From contig CAJOMA010000003.1 in assembly GCA_905235655.1 (NCBI GenBank), positions 4,067 to 68,066 of the forward strand: a DNA stretch of 64,000 nucleotides, written 5' to 3'. The notes under the pieces were generated by a model that was not told the DNA's origin, ran no database searches, and saw nothing but the letters and a program-made list of their open reading frames with translations. This document shows positions 12,899-46,931 of this stretch, one piece after another. How positions within the stretch are numbered: the stretch's first letter is position 1; each line of letters starts with the position of its first letter. Source of the stretch: an uncultured Oscillospiraceae bacterium. Its GTDB lineage: Bacteria > Bacillota > Clostridia > Oscillospirales > Oscillospiraceae. A program made the position numbers and the translations under genes.

Positions 12899-15280
12899 AT
12901 GTATCAGGTAGTAAAACGAAATGACAAGGTCGTTGATTTTGACCTGTCGAAAATCTGTCTCGCCATTCAAAAGGCATTCGACGCCCTCGGCAAGGACTAC
13001 AACAAGGACACCATCGACTTCCTCGCGCTCAAGGTAACGGCTGACTTTGAGCCGAAGATCAAGGATGGCAAGGTCGCGGTCGAGGACGTGCAGGACAGCG
13101 TAGAGACTGTTCTGATCCGCGCGGGCTACGACGACGTGGCAAAGGCGTATATCCTTTACCGCCGTCAGAGAGAAAAGCTCCGCAACATGAAGTCCACCAT
13201 CCTCGACTACAAGGAGCTTGTGGACAGCTACGTCAAGGTGCAGGACTGGCGCGTCAAGGAGAATTCCACCGTCACCTACTCCGTCGGCGGTCTGATCCTC
13301 TCCAACTCCGGCGCGATCACCGCGAATTACTGGCTCAGCGAAATCTACGACGATGAGATCGCAAACGCGCACAAAAACTGCGATCTGCACATCCACGACA
13401 TGTCCATGCTGACCGGCTACTGCGCGGGCTGGTCGCTGCGCCAGCTCATTCAGGAGGGTCTCGGCGGCGTACCCGGCAAGATCACCTCCGCGCCTGCGAA
13501 GCACCTGGCTTCCCTGTGCAACCAGATGGTCAACTTCCTCGGCATCATGCAGAACGAATGGGCGGGCGCGCAGGCGTTCTCGTCCTTCGACACCTATCTT
13601 GCTCCCTTCGTCAAGGTGGACAACCTGAACTACGATCAGGTAAAGAAGTGCGTCGAGTCCTTCATCTACGGCGTCAATACCCCGTCCAGATGGGGTACGC
13701 AGGCGCCCTTCTCCAACATCACGCTTGACTGGACCGTGCCGGACGACATGGCGGAGCTTCCCGCGATCGTCGGCGGCAAGGAAATGCCATTCAAATACAA
13801 GGACTGCAAGGCGGAAATGGACATGGTCAACCGCGCCTTCATCGAGACGATGATCGAAGGCGACGCAAACGGCCGCGGCTTCCAGTACCCGATTCCCACC
13901 TATTCGATCACCCGCGACTTCGACTGGTCGGAGACCGAGAACAACAAGCTGCTGTTCGAGATGACCGCGAAGTACGGCACCCCCTATTTCTCCAACTACG
14001 TCAACAGCGACATGCAGCCGAGCGACGTGCGCTCCATGTGCTGCCGTCTGCGTCTTGACCTGCGCGAGCTGCGCAAGAAGTCCGGCGGCTTCTTCGGCAG
14101 CGGCGAGTCCACCGGCTCTGTCGGCGTCGTTACGATCAATATGCCGAAGATCGCGTATCTTTCCAAGACGCCGCAGGAATTCTACAAGCGTCTGGATCAC
14201 CTGATGGACATTGCCGCCCGTTCGCTGAAGATCAAGCGCACCGTCATCACCCGTCTGATGGAAGAAGGGCTTTATCCCTACACGAAGCGCTACCTCGGTA
14301 CCTTTGAAAACCACTTCTCCACCCTCGGTCTGATCGGCATGAACGAGGTCGGCCTGAACGCGGCTTGGCTGCGCAAGGACATGAGTCATAAAGAAACCCA
14401 GGAGTTCACGAAGGAAGTTCTGAACCACATGCGAGAGCGCCTGTCCGACTATCAGGAGCAGTACGGCGATCTATACAACCTCGAGGCGACTCCGGCGGAG
14501 TCCACCACCTACCGTCTTGCCAAGCACGACAAGAAAGACTTCCCCGACATCATCACCGCCAACGAGAACGGCACTCCGTACTACACCAACTCCTCTCACC
14601 TGCCCGTCGGCTACACCGAGGACATCTTCTCCGCGCTGGACGTGCAGGACGAGCTGCAGACGCTCTATACCTCCGGCACCGTCTTCCACGCCTTCCTTGG
14701 CGAGAAGCTGCCTGACTGGCGTTCTGCCGCCGCGCTGGTGCGCAAGATCGCAGAGAACTACCGTCTGCCGTATTACACCCTCTCTCCGACCTACTCCGTC
14801 TGCCGCGAGCACGGCTATATTACCGGCGAACAGTATACCTGCCCGATCTGCGGTCAGCCGACCGAGGTCTACAGCCGTATCACCGGATACTACCGCCCCG
14901 TACAAAACTTCAACGACGGCAAGGCGCAGGAATTCAAGGATCGCTTGGAATACAACGTCGCAAGCTCCATGAAGAACCGTTTCGGCGGCGCGGAAGCTTC
15001 CGCACAGACTGAAAAAGAAGTTTCTGTCGCTCCCTGCGCGGATGGCAGACTGGTGCTCTTCACCACGAGCACCTGCCCGAAGTGCGTGATGGCGAAGAAA
15101 TTCCTCGCAGACGCCGGTATCTCCTATGAAACCGTCGTCGTGAACGAAACGCCTGATGAGGCGAGAAAGTACGGCGTTCGTCAGGCGCCTACCCTCCTGA
15201 TCCTCGACGGAGACAAAGAAATCGACCGCGTGGAGAATCCGTCCAACATCCGCGCCTTTGCGGAAGCGCACATGGCGTAA
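12899..15280 (+). CDS. nrdD: Class III ribonucleotide reductase with ATP cone and fused C-terminal CxxC redoxin domain
   Basis: ATP cone, RSMCCRL finger loop, Zn motifs CREH/CPIC, YSRITGYYRP glycyl-radical motif, then TCPKC..QAPT domain. Confidence 0.93.
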   Translation: MYQVVKRNDKVVDFDLSKICLAIQKAFDALGKDYNKDTIDFLALKVTADFEPKIKDGKVAVEDVQDSVETVLIRAGYDDVAKAYILYRRQREKLRNMKSTILDYKELVDSYVKVQDWRVKENSTVTYSVGGLILSNSGAITANYWLSEIYDDEIANAHKNCDLHIHDMSMLTGYCAGWSLRQLIQEGLGGVPGKITSAPAKHLASLCNQMVNFLGIMQNEWAGAQAFSSFDTYLAPFVKVDNLNYDQVKKCVESFIYGVNTPSRWGTQAPFSNITLDWTVPDDMAELPAIVGGKEMPFKYKDCKAEMDMVNRAFIETMIEGDANGRGFQYPIPTYSITRDFDWSETENNKLLFEMTAKYGTPYFSNYVNSDMQPSDVRSMCCRLRLDLRELRKKSGGFFGSGESTGSVGVVTINMPKIAYLSKTPQEFYKRLDHLMDIAARSLKIKRTVITRLMEEGLYPYTKRYLGTFENHFSTLGLIGMNEVGLNAAWLRKDMSHKETQEFTKEVLNHMRERLSDYQEQYGDLYNLEATPAESTTYRLAKHDKKDFPDIITANENGTPYYTNSSHLPVGYTEDIFSALDVQDELQTLYTSGTVFHAFLGEKLPDWRSAAALVRKIAENYRLPYYTLSPTYSVCREHGYITGEQYTCPICGQPTEVYSRITGYYRPVQNFNDGKAQEFKDRLEYNVASSMKNRFGGAEASAQTEKEVSVAPCADGRLVLFTTSTCPKCVMAKKFLADAGISYETVVVNETPDEARKYGVRQAPTLLILDGDKEIDRVENPSNIRAFAEAHMA

Positions 15281-15291
15281 GAGGTCGTCGT

Positions 15292-16194
15292 ATGTATGAT
15301 ATCATTATCGTCGGCGCAGGTCCCGCGGGTCTGACTGCGGCGATCTACGCGCGGCGCGCCGGAAAAACCGTCTTAGTCCTCGAAAAGGACACCTTCGGCG
15401 GGCAGGTCACCTACTCGCCGAAGCTGGAAAACTATCCGGGCTTTACGGAGATCAGCGGCAACGAGCTGGCGCAGAAGATGCTCGAGCAGGCGCTCGCGCT
15501 CGGTGCGGAGGTCGATATGGACACCGTGACCGACGTTAAGGACGGCGCAGTAAAAACCGTTGTCGGCGAGGCGGCGACCTATGAAGCGAAAGCCGTGATC
15601 ATCGCAGCGGGCGCGCGTCACCGCCGTCTGCATCTTCCCAATGAGGAAGCACTGATCGGTAATGGCATCTCCTTCTGCGCGGTCTGCGACGGCGCGTTCT
15701 ACAAGGGACAGCACGTCGCGGTCATCGGCGGCGGCAATACCGCCCTGCAGGAGATTCTGCTTCTGTCCGAGGTCTGCAGCAAGGTAACGGTCGTGCAGAA
15801 CCTTGCCTTCCTGACCGGAGAACAGAAGATGATCGACTTGGTGAAGTCCAGAGACAACATCGAAGTGATCTATTCGACCGTCGTGAAAGCCTACGAGGGC
15901 GAAAGCAGCCTCGAGGCGATCCGCCTGATCAACACAGCGACGAACGAGGAAAGCCGCCTTGAAGTAGACGGCATCTTCCTCGCCATCGGCACGGTGCCGG
16001 AAAACGGCGCCTATCATAAGGTCGCGAAGCTCAACGAGCAGGGCTATATCGAAGCAGACGAGCGCTGCATGACCGGAACGCCCGGCGTGTTCGTTGCCGG
16101 AGACTGCCGCACGAAGACGTACCGTCAAGTCGCGACGGCGATCGCGGACGGCGCAGCCGCCGCGCTCAACGCCTGCCGTTATCTGGACGCATAG
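15292..16194 (+). CDS. trxB: Thioredoxin reductase
   Basis: GAGPAG, FCAVCDG active site, GGGNTA and AGDCR motifs. Confidence 0.9.
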   Translation: MYDIIIVGAGPAGLTAAIYARRAGKTVLVLEKDTFGGQVTYSPKLENYPGFTEISGNELAQKMLEQALALGAEVDMDTVTDVKDGAVKTVVGEAATYEAKAVIIAAGARHRRLHLPNEEALIGNGISFCAVCDGAFYKGQHVAVIGGGNTALQEILLLSEVCSKVTVVQNLAFLTGEQKMIDLVKSRDNIEVIYSTVVKAYEGESSLEAIRLINTATNEESRLEVDGIFLAIGTVPENGAYHKVAKLNEQGYIEADERCMTGTPGVFVAGDCRTKTYRQVATAIADGAAAALNACRYLDA

Positions 16195-16200
16195 AAAATA

Positions 16201-16229
16201 AGATGACTTCTCAAACTGAGAAGTCATCT
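16201..16229 (+). terminator. trxB terminator; left direct repeat of MITE copy 1
   Basis: 12-bp perfect stem agatgacttctc-aaact-gagaagtcatct; identical 29-mer at 16471-16499. Confidence 0.8.
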
Positions 16230-16470
16230 CAGACTGTCAAAAGAGTCCGTAACCGTCAAAATCAATCAAACATTTTGAGTATTTTGCGCTGATTGATCTT
16301 TTATGTTAATTCGGAGTTTTTAAACTTTCGAGACGCTAAAAATGCTTGCTTCGCAAGGATTTTGACTTACTGCGCAACTTGCACTCTACCGTATCTATAT
16401 ACGCCTACGAGTGCAAGTTGCTTGTCTTCCGAACTTTTTGGCTGTCGAAAAAAGGTTTTTCGACACGCTG
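16230..16470. mobile_element. Non-autonomous MITE-like element, copy 1 (241 bp)
   Basis: Ends cagactgtcaaaa and tttttcgacacgctg form imperfect TIRs; flanked by a 29-bp direct repeat; homologous to 44522-44772. Confidence 0.78.
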
Positions 16471-16499
16471 AGATGACTTCTCAAACTGAGAAGTCATCT
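16471..16499 (+). repeat. Right direct repeat (duplicated terminator hairpin) of MITE copy 1
   Basis: Exact copy of 16201-16229, followed by tttttt. Confidence 0.85.
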
Positions 16500-16526
16500 T
16501 TTTCATTTACGATCAAATATTGTCAT

Positions 16527-22584: not shown

Positions 22585-22818
22585 AAATCGCCCTCTGCTT
22601 TCGCAGAGGACGAGAATTTCCCGTGGTACCACCTCTATTGGGTCTCAGCGGATCGTGTGATCCCGCGCTGTAACGGGCGCAGCCGTTTCCGCCTACTGGA
22701 AAGCCGTTCGGCAGAACCGCTCGGAAAGGAATTCCGCCTGTGCGCCGCCGCTGTCTTGCACCGACCGGCAGTTCTCTGTAGGCGCATTCACAGGTGTACT
22801 TGGTTTCGTCATCGCGTT
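22585..22818 (-). ncRNA. T-box riboswitch with Phe (UUC) specifier
   Basis: Minus strand shows GCGAUGA GA-motif, AGUA, AGAGA, GGUGCAAGA, GAA-UUC specifier (22731-22729), GAGCG, T-box AAUAGAGGUGGUACCACG and terminator hairpin 22589-22612 with U-tract. Confidence 0.9.
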
Positions 22819-22831
22819 TTCTATTAGGAAC

Positions 22832-23430: not shown

Positions 23431-24579
23431 ATGACTACAATTGACATTTATTCCGGCTTTCTCGGCGCGGGGAAAACGACCCTGATCAAGAAGATGATCA
23501 AGGAAGCCTATTGCGGCGAAAAGATCGTCCTGATCGAGAACGAATTCGGCGAGATCGGCATCGACGGCGGTTTCATGCAGGAGGCGGGAATCCAGATTAA
23601 CGAGATGAATTCCGGCTGTATATGCTGCTCCCTCGTCGGCGATTTCAGCAAGGCGCTGCAGCAGGTCATCAGCGAGTATGCGCCCGACCGCATTTTGATC
23701 GAGCCGTCCGGCGTCGGCAAACTCAGCGACGTGATCGCCGCGGTGCAGCGCTCCGTCGGCGCTGAGGTGCAGCTCGGCTGCTTCGTCACCGTCGCAGATG
23801 CGACGAAATGCAGGGTGTATCTGAAGAATTTCGGCGAATTCTACAGCAATCAGATCGAAACGGCGTCGGCGATCATTCTCAGCCGCACCGCGACCATTGC
23901 CGAGGACAAGCTGGATACCGCCGTTTCCCTGCTCCGCGAGCACAACAAAGAGGCCGTCATTATCACGACTCCGTGGGAGGAGCTGACTGGCGCGCAGATT
24001 CTGGACGCCATGCGCCACCAAAACAGTCTGACGGAAGAACTGGCGGAGTTGATCGAACACGAGCATCACCATCACGACGATGAGGAATGCGACGATCCCG
24101 ATTGCTCCTGCCACCACCATCATCATGACCACGAGGACGGCGAGGAGCATCACCACCACCATCACCACGATCATGAGGACGGTGAGGAGCATCACCATCA
24201 TCACCACGATCATGAGGACGGCGAGGAGCATCACCACCACCATCACCACGATCATGAGGACGGCGAGGAGCATCACCATCATCACCACCACGGTCACGAC
24301 GCAGACGAGGTCTTCCAGAGCTGGGGCGTGGAAACACACAAGAAGTTCAGCAGAGACGACCTCAACGAGATTCTTTCCGCGCTCGACAGCGACGAAGTTT
24401 ACGGTATCGTGCTTCGCGCGAAGGGCATCGTCCAGTCGCCGGACGGCGGATGGCTGCATTTTGACCATGTTCCCGGCGAGATCGACATTCGCAGCGGCTG
24501 CGCCGCCGTGACCGGCAGACTCTGCGTGATCGGCTCAAAGCTGAAGGAAGCGGAAATCGTCAACCTTTTTGGAGTGTAA
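23431..24579 (+). CDS. COG0523/CobW-family metallochaperone GTPase with His-rich insert
   Basis: GFLGAGKTT, NEFGEIGID, GCICCS (CxCC) and EPSG motifs; CobW-type C-terminal domain. Confidence 0.9.
   Translation: MTTIDIYSGFLGAGKTTLIKKMIKEAYCGEKIVLIENEFGEIGIDGGFMQEAGIQINEMNSGCICCSLVGDFSKALQQVISEYAPDRILIEPSGVGKLSDVIAAVQRSVGAEVQLGCFVTVADATKCRVYLKNFGEFYSNQIETASAIILSRTATIAEDKLDTAVSLLREHNKEAVIITTPWEELTGAQILDAMRHQNSLTEELAELIEHEHHHHDDEECDDPDCSCHHHHHDHEDGEEHHHHHHHDHEDGEEHHHHHHDHEDGEEHHHHHHHDHEDGEEHHHHHHHGHDADEVFQSWGVETHKKFSRDDLNEILSALDSDEVYGIVLRAKGIVQSPDGGWLHFDHVPGEIDIRSGCAAVTGRLCVIGSKLKEAEIVNLFGV
24127..24291 (+). repeat. In-frame tandem repeat, 4 units of 39-42 bp encoding DHEDGEE(H)6-7
   Basis: Units start at 24127, 24169, 24208 and 24250. 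Confidence 0.9.
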
Positions 24580-42784: not shown

Positions 42785-42886
42785 TCCTATTATATCGCGG
42801 AAAAATAAAATTGCAAGCCCCGTAACAAAGAATTCATACTTTATTTCTTTGCCGCTGTGTGATACACTGAAAACGAGGTGAAACAC

Positions 42887-44488
42887 ATGATTACAGTCAG
42901 CGATGTGGCGCTGCAATTCGGCGGCACTTACCTGTTTCAGCACGTTGATCTGCAATTCACTGCGGGTAACTGCTACGGCGTGATCGGCGCGAACGGGGCG
43001 GGAAAATCGACGTTTTTGAAGCTCCTTTCCGGCGAACTGGAAACGACGAAGGGCGAAATCACGATCAAACCCGGTCTGCGCATGTCCGTATTGAAGCAGA
43101 ATCAGTTTGAATATGACGCATATTCGGTGATCGACACGGTGATTATGGGCAACAAACGTCTTTATGACGTGATGAAGCAGAAGGACGCGCTATACGCAAA
43201 GCCTGATTTTTCCGATGATGACGGCATTCTCGCCTCTGAGCTGGAGATCGAATTTGCCGAGATGAACGGCTGGGAGGCGGAGTCAGACGCGAGCCGCATT
43301 CTGCAGGGGCTTGGGATTCCCGTCGAGCTGCATGAGGACGCGATGGCGGACACCGACCCGCGTCTGAAGGTCAAGGTTCTGCTTGCGCAGGCGCTGTTCG
43401 GCAATCCGGATATTATTCTTCTGGACGAGCCGACCAACAACCTCGATATCGAGTCGATCAACTGGCTGGAAAACTTCCTGCTGGACTATGAGGACAACGG
43501 CACGGTGATCGTCGTCAGTCACGACCGTCACTTTCTTAACACCGTCTGCACGCACATCGTGGACATCGACTACGGCAAGATCAAAATGTACGTCGGCAAC
43601 TACGATTTCTGGTATGAATCCAGTCAGCTTGTGCAGACCCTGCTGCGCAACAAGAACAAGCGTAATGAGGAAAAGATCGCGGAGCTGCAGGAATTTATCT
43701 CCCGCTTCTCCGCGAACAAGGCAAAGAGCAAGCAGGCAACGGCGCGCCGCCGCCTGCTGGAAAAGCTGAGCATCGAAGAGATTCCGATGTCCTCCCGCCG
43801 CTACCCCTTCGTCGGCTTTACCAGAGAACGTGAGGTTGGCAAGGATATTCTGTTTGTCACGGAAATCAGCAAAACCTTGGACGGCGTCAAGCTGCTCGAC
43901 AAGGTCTCCTTTACCGTGAACAAGAACGACAAGATCGCCTTCGTCGGCGAAAACGAGCTGGCGCAGACGACAATGTTCAAGATACTGATGGGAGAATCAG
44001 AGCCGGACGAGGGCAGCGTCCACTGGGGCGTGACGACCTCGCAAAGCTATTTCCCGAAAGACAATTCTGCATTCTTTGAGGGCTGCGACGATTCCCTTGT
44101 AGACTGGCTGCGGCAGTTCTCCGCAAAGAAGGACGACGTTTATCTGCGCAGTTTTCTCGGCAGAATGCTCTTTTCCGGCGACGATGTGTTCAAGCCGGTC
44201 AGCGTCCTGTCCGGCGGCGAGAAGGTACGCTGCATGCTTTCCAAAATGATGCTGTCCGGCGCAAACGTACTCCTGCTCGATCAGCCGACCAACCATCTCG
44301 ATATGGAATCCATCCAGGCGGTCAACAACGGCATGGCAGCTTTCCCGGGAAATATCCTGTTCGCAAGCCACGATCATGAGCTTTTGCAGTCGGTCGCCAA
44401 CCGGATTATTGAGTTCCGCCCCGACGGGACGATCACCGATTACCTCGGCACTTATGACGAATATCTGGAATACAGAAAAGACCAATAA
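42887..44488 (+). CDS. ABC-F family ATPase (YbiT-like)
   Basis: Two NBDs and no TM helices; GANGAGKST, LLDEPTN and LSGGEK motifs; PtIM-type linker. Confidence 0.9.
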   Translation: MITVSDVALQFGGTYLFQHVDLQFTAGNCYGVIGANGAGKSTFLKLLSGELETTKGEITIKPGLRMSVLKQNQFEYDAYSVIDTVIMGNKRLYDVMKQKDALYAKPDFSDDDGILASELEIEFAEMNGWEAESDASRILQGLGIPVELHEDAMADTDPRLKVKVLLAQALFGNPDIILLDEPTNNLDIESINWLENFLLDYEDNGTVIVVSHDRHFLNTVCTHIVDIDYGKIKMYVGNYDFWYESSQLVQTLLRNKNKRNEEKIAELQEFISRFSANKAKSKQATARRRLLEKLSIEEIPMSSRRYPFVGFTREREVGKDILFVTEISKTLDGVKLLDKVSFTVNKNDKIAFVGENELAQTTMFKILMGESEPDEGSVHWGVTTSQSYFPKDNSAFFEGCDDSLVDWLRQFSAKKDDVYLRSFLGRMLFSGDDVFKPVSVLSGGEKVRCMLSKMMLSGANVLLLDQPTNHLDMESIQAVNNGMAAFPGNILFASHDHELLQSVANRIIEFRPDGTITDYLGTYDEYLEYRKDQ

Positions 44489-44490
44489 TA

Positions 44491-44521
44491 AACGGTGCGC
44501 TGCTAACACAGCGCACCCGAT
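44491..44521. repeat. Terminator hairpin; left direct repeat of MITE copy 2
   Basis: aacggtgcgctgctaacacagcgcacccgat; repeated at 44773-44804 with one extra G. Confidence 0.82.
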
Positions 44522-44772
44522 CAGACTGTCAAAAAGTCCGTAACCGTCAAAATCAGCAAAGATTTTTCGGCCTATTTCGCGGACTATGCATTTTTCGATT
44601 TCTTAAATTTCCTAACTTTTTGGTTAAACAAACGCTTGCTTCGCAAGGATTTTGACTTACTGCGCAACTCACGACCTACCGTATCTATTATACGCCGACG
44701 GTCGTGAGTTGCTTGTCTTCCGAACTTTTTGGCAGCCTGCCAGCGTGTCGAAAAAGGTTTTTCGACACGCTG
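44522..44772. mobile_element. Non-autonomous MITE-like element, copy 2 (251 bp)
   Basis: Same ends as copy 1 (cagactgtcaaaaag ... tttttcgacacgctg); shared internal blocks; flanked by about 31-bp direct repeats. Confidence 0.78.
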
Positions 44773-44804
44773 AACGGGTGCGCTGCTAACACAGCGCACC
44801 CGAT
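44773..44804. terminator. ispH-rpsA terminator; right direct repeat of MITE copy 2
   Basis: 11-bp stem cgggtgcgctg-ctaaca-cagcgcacccg. Confidence 0.8.
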
Positions 44805-44813
44805 ATTTTTCGC

Positions 44814-46931
44814 TTATTCTGCGGGAGCCTCTTCAACTGGCGCAGTTTCCTCAACGGGAGCTTCTTCCACGGAAGCAGCTTCCTCGGCGGGAGCCTCTTC
44901 CACAGGAGCGGCTTCCTCAACGGGAGCCTCATCCACAGGTGCAGCTTCCTCAACAGAAGCTTCGTCGACAGGCTCTTCCTCCTCTGCAGGAGCTTCCTCC
45001 TCTGCAGGAACCGGCACAAGCAGCGCGCGGATGGAGAGGGAGATACGCTTGCGCTCGGAGTCGATCTCGATGATCTTCGCTTCGACTTCCTGACCTTCGC
45101 TCAAGGCGTCGGAAACCTTCTCGACGCGATGATCCGAGACCTGCGAAATATGGATCAGACCGTCAACCCCGGGCAGAATCTCTGCGAACGCGCCGAAATC
45201 GACAATCTTCACGATCTTGACCTGCGCAACGTCGCCGACGGAATACTTCTCGCAGAACTGGTTCCACGGATTCATCTCCGGCGTCTTGTAGCCGAGAGAA
45301 ATCTTCTTCTTCTCGGGATCGGCCTTTATGACGAAGACCTCGATGGTATCGCCGACCTTTACGACCTCGTCGGGAGTCTTAATGCGTCCCCAAGACAGCT
45401 CGGAGATATGGACCATGCCGTCCACGCCGCCGATGTCGACAAAGGCGCCGTAGCTGGTGAGGGACTTAACGGTGCCGGTGTACTTCTTGCCGACCTCGAT
45501 CTCGCTCCAAACCTTCTCAATCGCAGCTCTGCGAGCCTCGCCGCTCAGGGCGCGGATAGAGCCGACGACTCTGCGGCGGGCGCGGTTGAATTCGGTGATC
45601 TTCATTTTCAGGGTCTTGCCCTTGAGCTCGCTCAGGTCGCCGCCCTTGGCGACGCCGGTCTGAGAAGCCGGAATGAACACGCGGACGCCCTTGACGTTGG
45701 CGACCAGACCGCCCTTGTTCTCTTCGGTAATGACGCCTTCAACGGGAGTCTTTTCCTCGCAGGCCTTTTCGACCTCGTCCCACACCTTCATGCCCTCGAG
45801 CTTTTTGCGGCTGAGCTGAACGGTGCCCTCCTGATCGTTGACGCGAACGACGAACACTTCGATCTCGTCGCCGACCTTCAGGACTTCCTCGGGTTTTACG
45901 TTGGGGTCTGCGCTGACTTCGTCATACGGGATGTAGCCGGCATGCTTCGTGCCCAGATCGACCTGGACTTCGGTGGAACCGATCGCGGTAACGGTGCCAA
46001 AAACCTTATCTCCTGTATTTAAAGTCTTGATGGAGTTTTCGAGCAAAGCCTCAAAGCTCTCCTCTGCGACTGCATCAACATTAGAAATTTCGCTCATAGT
46101 CTTATTGACCTCCTTTATAATCCACGCAGGCGTCGACGCGCCTGCAGTGATGCCGATGGTAGCGCAATTCTGATATACGGCAGGATCGAGCTCGTCCGCG
46201 CAGTCGATCAGGTCGACCCTCGCGCAGTGCTCTGCGCAGATATGCGCCAGACGACCGGTATTGGAGCTGTTGCGGTCTCCGACGACGATCATGGCGTCGC
46301 AATTCGCCGCCAGTTCCGCGGCTTCTGCCTGCCTGTTTTCAGTTGCTCTGCATATTGTATCAAAGATTTCTCGATTTGTACACACTTTTTTTACGATTTT
46401 CTTGCAAGATTCCCATAAAAATTGCGTACTTGTCGTCTGAGAAACCATTGTGACGGGCAAATCCTTATTATTTTCCGAAGAATTCAGCCAGTTTTCGAGC
46501 TCCTCTGCGCTGGAAAAGACCAAAGGATGCCTGCACCAGCCGGCGATCGCTATGATCTCGGGATGGGTCGGCGTGCCGATGATGATCGGCTGTCTGCCAT
46601 CCTCCTCCGCCTTGGCGACAAGAGAATGGATGCGCTTGACGGACGGACAGGTCGCGTCGATGATCTCGACGTTTTTTGCCTCCAACGCTTCATACGTCGC
46701 GCGCGGAATGCCGTGAGAACGGATGATGACCGTCGAGCCGTCCGGAATATCGTCAAGGGAGGAAATCTCCTTGACGCCCAGCTCCTCAAAATGGCGTACC
46801 AGATGCCGGTTGTGTGCGATCGGGCCGAAGGTCACGGTGGACTTCCCTTCCACGATCGCCTGTTCGACCAGACCGACCGCGCGGCTGACGCCGTAGCAGA
46901 AGCCGGCGGTTTTCGCTGCTACAATCTTCAC
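44814..46931 (-). CDS. ispH: Bifunctional IspH (HMBPP reductase) / 30S ribosomal protein S1 fusion
   Basis: AGFCYGV, IAHN, DATCP, TIC.AT..RQ and SSNT IspH motifs, then four S1 repeats and an acidic tail. Confidence 0.92.
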   Translation of the reverse strand: MKIVAAKTAGFCYGVSRAVGLVEQAIVEGKSTVTFGPIAHNRHLVRHFEELGVKEISSLDDIPDGSTVIIRSHGIPRATYEALEAKNVEIIDATCPSVKRIHSLVAKAEEDGRQPIIIGTPTHPEIIAIAGWCRHPLVFSSAEELENWLNSSENNKDLPVTMVSQTTSTQFLWESCKKIVKKVCTNREIFDTICRATENRQAEAAELAANCDAMIVVGDRNSSNTGRLAHICAEHCARVDLIDCADELDPAVYQNCATIGITAGASTPAWIIKEVNKTMSEISNVDAVAEESFEALLENSIKTLNTGDKVFGTVTAIGSTEVQVDLGTKHAGYIPYDEVSADPNVKPEEVLKVGDEIEVFVVRVNDQEGTVQLSRKKLEGMKVWDEVEKACEEKTPVEGVITEENKGGLVANVKGVRVFIPASQTGVAKGGDLSELKGKTLKMKITEFNRARRRVVGSIRALSGEARRAAIEKVWSEIEVGKKYTGTVKSLTSYGAFVDIGGVDGMVHISELSWGRIKTPDEVVKVGDTIEVFVIKADPEKKKISLGYKTPEMNPWNQFCEKYSVGDVAQVKIVKIVDFGAFAEILPGVDGLIHISQVSDHRVEKVSDALSEGQEVEAKIIEIDSERKRISLSIRALLVPVPAEEEAPAEEEEPVDEASVEEAAPVDEAPVEEAAPVEEAPAEEAASVEEAPVEETAPVEEAPAE

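Follow-up and report, generated by a model that had tools for sequence, protein, structure and literature searches.

As far as we could find, duplication of an entire hairpin upon insertion is known for only a few full-size insertion sequences, and no miniature family with such behavior was found in the literature. IS1630 was reportedly shown by Calcutt et al. in 1999 to duplicate inverted repeats derived from rho-independent terminators. This IS30-family element of Mycoplasma fermentans targets and duplicates inverted repeats of variable length and variable sequence, the duplications ranging from 19 to 26 bp (PMC2853133). IS1272 and TnSha1, members of the IS1182 family in staphylococci, likewise insert at terminator hairpins (21-38 bp) without primary-sequence specificity, and a given hairpin can be hit more than once and in either orientation. 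Direct repeats listed for the IS1182 family in ISfinder span 0-60 bp. A cruciform model has been proposed for IS1272/TnSha1, and a scheme in which both 5' feet of the cruciform are attacked and the whole stem-loop is duplicated was presented as a hypothetical pathway for IS1272 (PMC5678879). PMC5678879 and PMC4923244 (citing Siguier 2015) describe the IS1182 family as targeting palindromes and generating direct repeats of variable length. Nine IS1630 copies and the hypothetical IS1272 branch were the earlier basis for structure-directed targeting that duplicates terminators.

IS1634 and IS1549, which are IS4-related, also generate long direct repeats of variable length on insertion; unlike those described below, these duplications are neither palindromic nor tied to terminators. 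IS1397, ISKpn1 and IS1111-type elements resemble our family in using extragenic palindromes (REP or BIME) as targets, but they recognize a single palindrome family in a sequence-specific manner, insert inside it and leave a short duplication or none; IS1111, for example, recognizes a REP inside QMITE2 (PMC10969869). Among miniature elements, Correia, RUP, Chunjie and MITEAba12 are comparable in being small, non-coding, multi-copy, intergenic and strongly folded, with terminal inverted repeats. Duplication of a terminator or hairpin by a MITE was not described in the MITE reviews or the other literature searched.

We analyzed a 64,000-nucleotide stretch of DNA from an uncultured Oscillospiraceae bacterium (hereafter the window), in which a profile built from 54 relatives detected exactly two copies of a short element. 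By direct reading, copy A occupies 16230-16470 on the plus strand (241 bp; nhmmer E = 1e-60), and the full-length copy B occupies 44522-44772, also on the plus strand (251 bp; E = 2.3e-73). Copy A is flanked by agatgacttctcaaactgagaagtcatct at 16201-16229 and 16471-16499, identical at 29 of 29 positions and folding into a hairpin whose stem is 13 bp and whose loop is 3 nt. The repeat on either side of copy B is ggtgcgctgctaacacagcgcacccgat (44494-44521 and 44777-44804; 28 of 28 identical), which lengthens to 32 bp if a one-base indel is allowed. Each target palindrome is complete, and the two have no sequence in common. A preliminary description of this DNA had given the coordinates, the repeat sequences and the lack of shared target sequence, and direct reading found all of them to be right. 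The two copies can be aligned end to end, with near-identical ends, a near-identical core of about 100 nt and an unconserved stretch of about 85 nt. Relative to the same insertion in a metagenome contig (L002), copy A is missing 11 bp in its right inverted repeat/terminal palindrome.

At site A, the neighbors are a trxB-like gene (15292-16194) and a small acid-soluble spore protein gene; the left repeat is the terminator palindrome 3' of the trxB-like gene, with a T-tail on the minus strand only, and the original T-tail (16500-16508) stands directly 3' of the right repeat. The genes on either side of site B converge on it: an ABC-F gene (42878-44488, plus strand) and an ispH-rpsA fusion gene (44814-46931, minus strand). 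Here the left repeat corresponds to the bidirectional terminator between the two genes, and the right repeat is followed by a T-tail.

An exact scan of GTDB species-representative genomes with a 20-mer of the left end recovered 79 stretches, which were MITEs apart from three chance matches, and a tip-pattern scan of JGI metagenomes recovered a further 111 that were MITEs or chance matches. The GTDB sources were almost all MAGs of Oscillospiraceae/Clostridiales recovered from the guts of humans, goats and other hosts, together with one Faecousia intestinalis isolate. Together, the two scans gave 190 related loci (about 1.4 Mb), nearly all from gut and rumen Oscillospiraceae, and distinct left flanks among them indicate at least 170 distinct copies. 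Copies measure 241-257 bp, and the family length is about 253 bp. In four gut metagenomes in which the window's strain occurs, depth was 250-3700x at the left end versus 10-15x at the unique flanks. Three metagenome contigs encoding the identical TrxB all carry the insertion and each breaks inside the element, one of them revealing the 11-bp loss in copy A, and the same element junctions were seen again across independent assemblies. Short-read assemblies of abundant gut Clostridia are fragmented by such elements, with contigs ending inside them. Coding capacity is absent, the recorded ORFs of 42-81 aa being spurious.

The two window loci very probably belong to a non-autonomous MITE family of gut and rumen Oscillospiraceae, in which structure-directed insertion duplicates the whole hairpin and mobilization would occur in trans. 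The family is short and without a transposase gene, has terminal inverted repeats, is associated with target duplications and empty sites, and occurs as many dispersed copies; an autonomous element with the same ends was not found in the window, the 190 loci, or the plasmid, phage and viral collections searched. The earlier characterization of the element as multi-copy and non-coding with inverted-repeat ends is borne out by the 170 distinct left flanks, the purely spurious ORFs and the match between its two inverted repeats.

The conserved left end (IRL) of the family comprises 34 nt, CAGACTGTCAAAAAAGTCCGTAACCGTCAAAATC, after which the roughly 85 unconserved nucleotides follow. In copy A it reads CAGACTGTCAAAAGAGTCCGTAACCGTCAAAATC (16230-16263, plus strand), is near-invariant across 54 aligned copies and contains two GTCAAAA motifs; in copy B it occupies 44522-44554 (plus strand). 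Several GTC(A/G)AAA motifs occur per element, and the tips consist of about 14 nt, CAGNNTGTCRAAAA. A first small hairpin, H1 (CTTGC-TTC-GCAAG at 16345-16357 in copy A; 44635-44647 in copy B), has T-rich tails on both strands and was weakly terminator-like on both strands of copy A in a terminator scan; it could serve as a weak stop within the element. The segment ATTTTGACTTACT located 3' of H1 is the complement of the second half of the left end. The internal hairpin H2, with 13 + 5 bp, spans 16374-16421 in copy A. Its counterpart in copy B (44664-44712) is formed by GCAACTCACGACC and GGTCGTGAGTTGC and has a conserved apical CGTAT/ATACG stem.

The right side of the element is more complex. An internal right inverted repeat (IRR) lies at 44713-44739 on the minus strand of copy B (reverse complement CAGGCTGCCAAAAAGTTCGGAAGACAA). 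Read as reverse complement, both this repeat and the family version, CAGGCTGTCAAAAAGTTCGGAAGACAA, agree with the left end in about 19 of 24 positions, and alignment columns 1-20 pair with columns 222-242. A spacer of 1-2 bp separates the IRR from H3, a terminal 32-bp palindrome (CAGCGTGTCGAAAAAGGTTTTTCGACACGCTG, 44741-44772 in copy B) in which two IR-like arms stand back to back. Its outer arm, which agrees with the left end in about 12 of 16 positions, borders the target duplication. The TIR-like ends noted in the preliminary description hold insofar as inverted-repeat ends are present, but the outermost match, CAGACTGTC / GACACGCTG, amounts to just 7 of 9 positions, and the right inverted repeat that matches better begins some way in, about 33 bp from the right end. 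The extra or alternative inverted repeats at one end of IS1272 (IS1272L) and TnSha1 (IRL') recall this right end, and the abutment of IRR, 1-2 bp spacer and IRL' resembles an IS30-type IR-IR junction; both are likenesses of layout rather than tests of family membership.

Some relatives depart from this plan. Two mini-derivatives, L012 (57 bp) and L190 (54 bp), have kept nothing but the left end together with either an inverted tip or the IRR. In L190 and L010 the IRR abuts the host hairpin directly, with neither H3 nor a left hairpin, an arrangement that suggests that H3 may have originated as a captured target hairpin. Nested small repeat families were observed inside copies at L074, L016, L050, L062, L104 and L192, often in or beside H2. 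The insert in L074 is about 50 bp and lies between 8-bp duplications, CTGCGCAG; other nested inserts are larger and rich in motifs of the GTCATTGCGAGG...CGCAATGAC type. These genomes contain several additional MITE-like families. The L071 copy ends after about 90 nt at DNA that, translated by eye, resembles the C-terminal region of a large serine recombinase, and this copy was probably interrupted by another mobile element.

We then compared the flanks of all copies. In a first set, 16 copies had exact direct repeats of 24-38 bp, each a whole hairpin, and in further copies the repeats differ at a few positions, chiefly within the loop. Across the 190 loci, 65 complete copies provided 51 distinct duplications of 17-41 bp (median 31), compared with the fixed 2-9 bp of classical bacterial MITEs. 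The duplication exceeds the stem-loop by 0-2 nt per side (4 at most), the palindrome cannot be extended past it in 35 of 51 cases, and in 38 of 51 its first base is A and its last base T. A perfect stem of at least 7 bp ending no more than 3 nt from the left end was found in 119 of 170 distinct left flanks (70%), far above chance, since 168 of 20,000 positions drawn at random from these loci (0.84%) have such a stem. The targets have features of intrinsic terminators in a sequence scan, namely a GC-rich hairpin, a T-run and a stop codon just upstream. Where ORFs are clear, the distance between the element and the stop codon of a convergent gene is about 35-45 nt, duplication included; the ORF-context table is noisy in this GC-rich DNA and was relied on for the convergent-gene cases only. 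An orientation bias relative to the T-tail was considered and dropped, as the flanks, A-rich upstream and T-rich downstream, are near-symmetric (3.8 A versus 4.3 T per 8 nt). The proposal that the element lands on terminator palindromes that have no sequence in common and duplicates each in full, to be checked in other copies, is thus upheld by the 51 duplications: insertion at the foot of a terminator hairpin with duplication of the whole hairpin is confirmed.

Unoccupied alleles, sought on the expectation that sister genomes would have one hairpin, were found in three cases. Each has a single hairpin where the occupied allele has two: L094 empty versus L147 occupied, with flanks 94.5% identical; L052 empty versus L135 occupied; and L022 empty versus L155 occupied. 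An empty allele of site A was not detected in contigs of the four metagenomes holding the window's strain. One hairpin (L168 and L166) carries the element in opposite orientations; the flanks are identical and the element interiors differ, which indicates independent insertions. The site A orthologue in Clostridiales bacterium ZC3RG02 (L029; TrxB 90% and NrdD 94% identical) is also occupied. The hairpin copies are identical within each genome and differ between the window and L029, compensated pairs included, and the unconstrained element interior is 47% identical compared with 66% for the adjoining intergenic DNA. For these reasons we read the two occupied sites as separate hits on one hot spot, with gene conversion as the alternative. 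In the window (12899-16194), NrdD with a C-terminal glutaredoxin-like domain (Pfam) is encoded directly upstream of the trxB-like gene, and this arrangement is kept in L029.

About 10 of the 65 complete copies have unlike hairpins on their two sides, or no hairpin on one side; those with unlike hairpins include L049, L094, L119, L133, L141 and L129. We infer that they arose through recombination between dispersed copies and through decay. In some older insertions (L191, L120 and L017) the stems are identical and the loop of one hairpin is approximately the reverse complement of the other, which looks like inversion of the loop within the palindrome after duplication. In L142, a 2.1-kb lipoprotein gene lies natively between two identical 21-bp hairpins. 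The element adjoins both of those hairpins in L141, where the DNA beyond one of them differs from L142, a difference that indicates rearrangement at a MITE copy. The chimeric flanks seen in the family suggest that these elements seed rearrangements.

The duplicated segment is the stem-loop without its T-tail, and this has consequences for transcription. At both sites the plus strand gives a terminator score at the right copy only (16471-16499 and 44777-44804) and the minus strand at the left copy only. The earlier suggestion that each flanking gene keeps a terminator, leaving the insertion insulated, was not sustained, since on either strand the distal copy is the only one with a terminator score. 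As the T-tail is left out of the duplication, transcription entering from either neighbor should run through the proximal hairpin and on through the element, which is probably part of the 3'-UTR of the flanking genes and would lengthen it. Judged from the same terminator scores, the neighboring genes should remain insulated from each other and downstream genes protected.

In its targets the family behaves as IS1630 does, whole terminator inverted repeats being duplicated. IS1630 is an autonomous 1.4-kb insertion sequence of a mollicute with its own transposase, whereas our element is 253 bp, non-coding and clostridial, and its duplications reach 41 bp versus 19-26 bp for IS1630. The palindromic targets and direct repeats of variable length that typify the IS1182 family are likewise present. 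IS1272, however, removes the hairpin wholly or partly without duplicating it and is autonomous with a 548-aa transposase, in contrast to our non-coding, hairpin-duplicating element. To the earlier basis, the MITE family adds dozens of independent events in which the duplication follows the stem and single-hairpin empty sites exist. Events of this kind separate an enzyme that measures shape from one that measures distance.

A cruciform pathway like that proposed for IS1272/TnSha1 could generate these footprints. The target palindrome would be extruded as a cruciform, which would bring its two 5' feet side by side at the four-way junction. A DDE-type transposase supplied in trans would then join both 3' ends of the element to the palindrome's 5' feet, on two strands, and an ordinary short stagger with gap repair would yield a duplication equal to the palindrome plus 0-4 nt. 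Target positions would be set by the foot of the palindrome and thus by DNA shape rather than sequence. Joining at cruciform feet predicts that duplication length follows the target stem without a fixed ruler, and that orientation preference is absent. Each insertion would create a new copy of the target and so permit tandem re-insertion; L104 contains two tandem elements and three hairpin copies. Recombination among dispersed copies would produce chimeric flanks and rearrangements. The same footprint could result from a dimeric enzyme that reads the duplex palindrome, or from hairpins on single-stranded DNA.

A candidate transposase was sought in several ways. Consistent with the preliminary description, which placed no transposase in the window, none with compatible ends was found there, and the expected gene bounded by the same terminal repeats was likewise missing from the 190 loci (about 1.4 Mb; 79 genome and 111 metagenome stretches). 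None of these loci contained compatible tip pairs 0.4-4 kb apart, and all-against-all clustering of their ORFs revealed no multi-copy transposase-like ORF. Searches of plasmids and phages by blastn gave nothing beyond a 35-nt chance match, and a scan of viral contigs gave no match. Plasmid pUSA300HOUMR, considered as a source of IS1182 ends for comparison, has no IS1182 copy. One reading frame of the element is open through the core to the right tip, and a protein search with it returned only ORFs of 42-81 aa inside other copies; two contigs around such ORFs contained no transposase Pfam domains. A generic hunt for other hairpin-duplicating inserts yielded a single 2.1-kb case, rejected as an autonomous partner because it is a host gene with the same hairpin natively on both sides. 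MAGs and short-read contigs retain insertion sequence copies poorly, so a partner may exist and be unassembled. With no partner found, mobilization in trans and the class of enzyme are inferred only, and an IS1182-type enzyme is one candidate.

The family may be orphaned, or may be cross-mobilized through its tips of about 14 nt. A more specific version of this idea, which we consider rather unlikely, holds that the element is an orphan or is cross-mobilized by an undescribed transposase that reads shape and requires a hairpin or cruciform in the donor as well as in the target. The strictly Watson-Crick H2 and the terminal H3 would then be cis-acting cruciforms that serve as target mimics or synapsis sites, and H3 would be a captured target hairpin that provides an alternative end, like the IRL' of TnSha1. 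If true, more than 170 natural events would define a rule of structure-guided integration. An enzyme able to integrate at terminators while leaving genes uncut would be an attractive tool, as suggested earlier for IS1630; such use depends on identifying the transposase of the MITE.

We also considered whether the element serves its host first of all as a structured RNA or 3'-UTR module, for example a small RNA or a determinant of stability or termination; selection would then drive its spread, transposition would be just the vehicle, and the conserved H1/H2 core would be the functional part. The core is much more conserved than the ~85-nt left interior, co-transcription with the flanking genes is expected, and the folding z-scores are -4.5 and -8.1. 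In 54 copies the named hairpins were 98.2% paired, compared with 29-50% for slid controls, and H3 (helix 4 of the covariation analysis) reached 99.3%; H1 (helix 1) has three pairs with both sides changed. Five mid-stem positions of H2 differ between copies A and B and every one is compensated, and H2 has 114 doubly changed, still-paired cells compared with 24.7 +/- 4 in shuffles, none of 500 of which scored as high. One-sided changes of the G-U type, however, numbered only about 10 against these 114. G-U pairs are normally tolerated in helices under selection as RNA, but not in a palindrome that has to pair on both strands of DNA. The near-absence of G-U changes in H2 therefore favors a DNA-level role over an RNA helix, and H2 may be a protein-binding palindrome or cruciform. 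The element had no Rfam match at the gathering score, and a permissive Rfam scan of copy B gave just sub-threshold matches, to the flanking hairpins. Copies occur in both orientations relative to their neighbors, and the sole metatranscriptome found provided a 2x contig of another copy. These observations make an RNA module improbable as the primary identity of the element, and a MITE mobilized in trans is preferred. The window's sole Rfam match lies elsewhere, a T-box leader at 22603-22821 on the minus strand (117 bits versus a gathering score of 93).

Still less credible is a HUH/Y1 transposase that recognizes hairpins in single-stranded DNA, as in an IS200/IS605 or REP/RAYT-type element targeting hairpins on the lagging-strand template. 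Hairpin targets without sequence consensus and conserved hairpins near one element end would agree with such an enzyme. Those systems, however, insert without target duplication and adjoin a short specific sequence, whereas 51 long duplications were found here. Our element also has terminal inverted repeats and shows no orientation bias (7 to 11 in tandem gene contexts, from the noisy ORF table), and a single hairpin was hit in both orientations. The traits of IS200/IS605-type and REP elements, namely lack of duplication, lack of terminal inverted repeats and strand-specific insertion, are accordingly not those of the family. Group II introns of class C, which leave no long duplication and have unfitting ends, and bridge-RNA or omega-RNA elements, which likewise lack a long duplication and do not match in their ends, were rejected as candidates.

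That the flanking repeats pre-date the insertion, through recombination into tandem terminators or as a repeat assembly artefact, is very hard to credit: L142 does have its hairpin twice without an element, either side of a 2.1-kb gene, and many copies sit at contig ends, but three single-hairpin empty alleles occur exactly where occupied alleles have two, 51 different hairpins are each precisely duplicated at the element ends, and the junctions recur across independent assemblies.

Two other repetitive tracts were observed in the window. Tandem repeats of 9, 33 and 42 nt at 24061-24324 consist of CAC, CAT, GAC and GAG codons and form histidine/acidic-rich, low-complexity coding sequence. The ispH-rpsA fusion gene beside site B (44814-46931, minus strand) encodes 705 aa, and its C-terminal tail contains a Glu/Ala/Pro/Val repeat with 15/18-nt periodicity (44812-45009) that ends about 10 nt from the right hairpin of site B.
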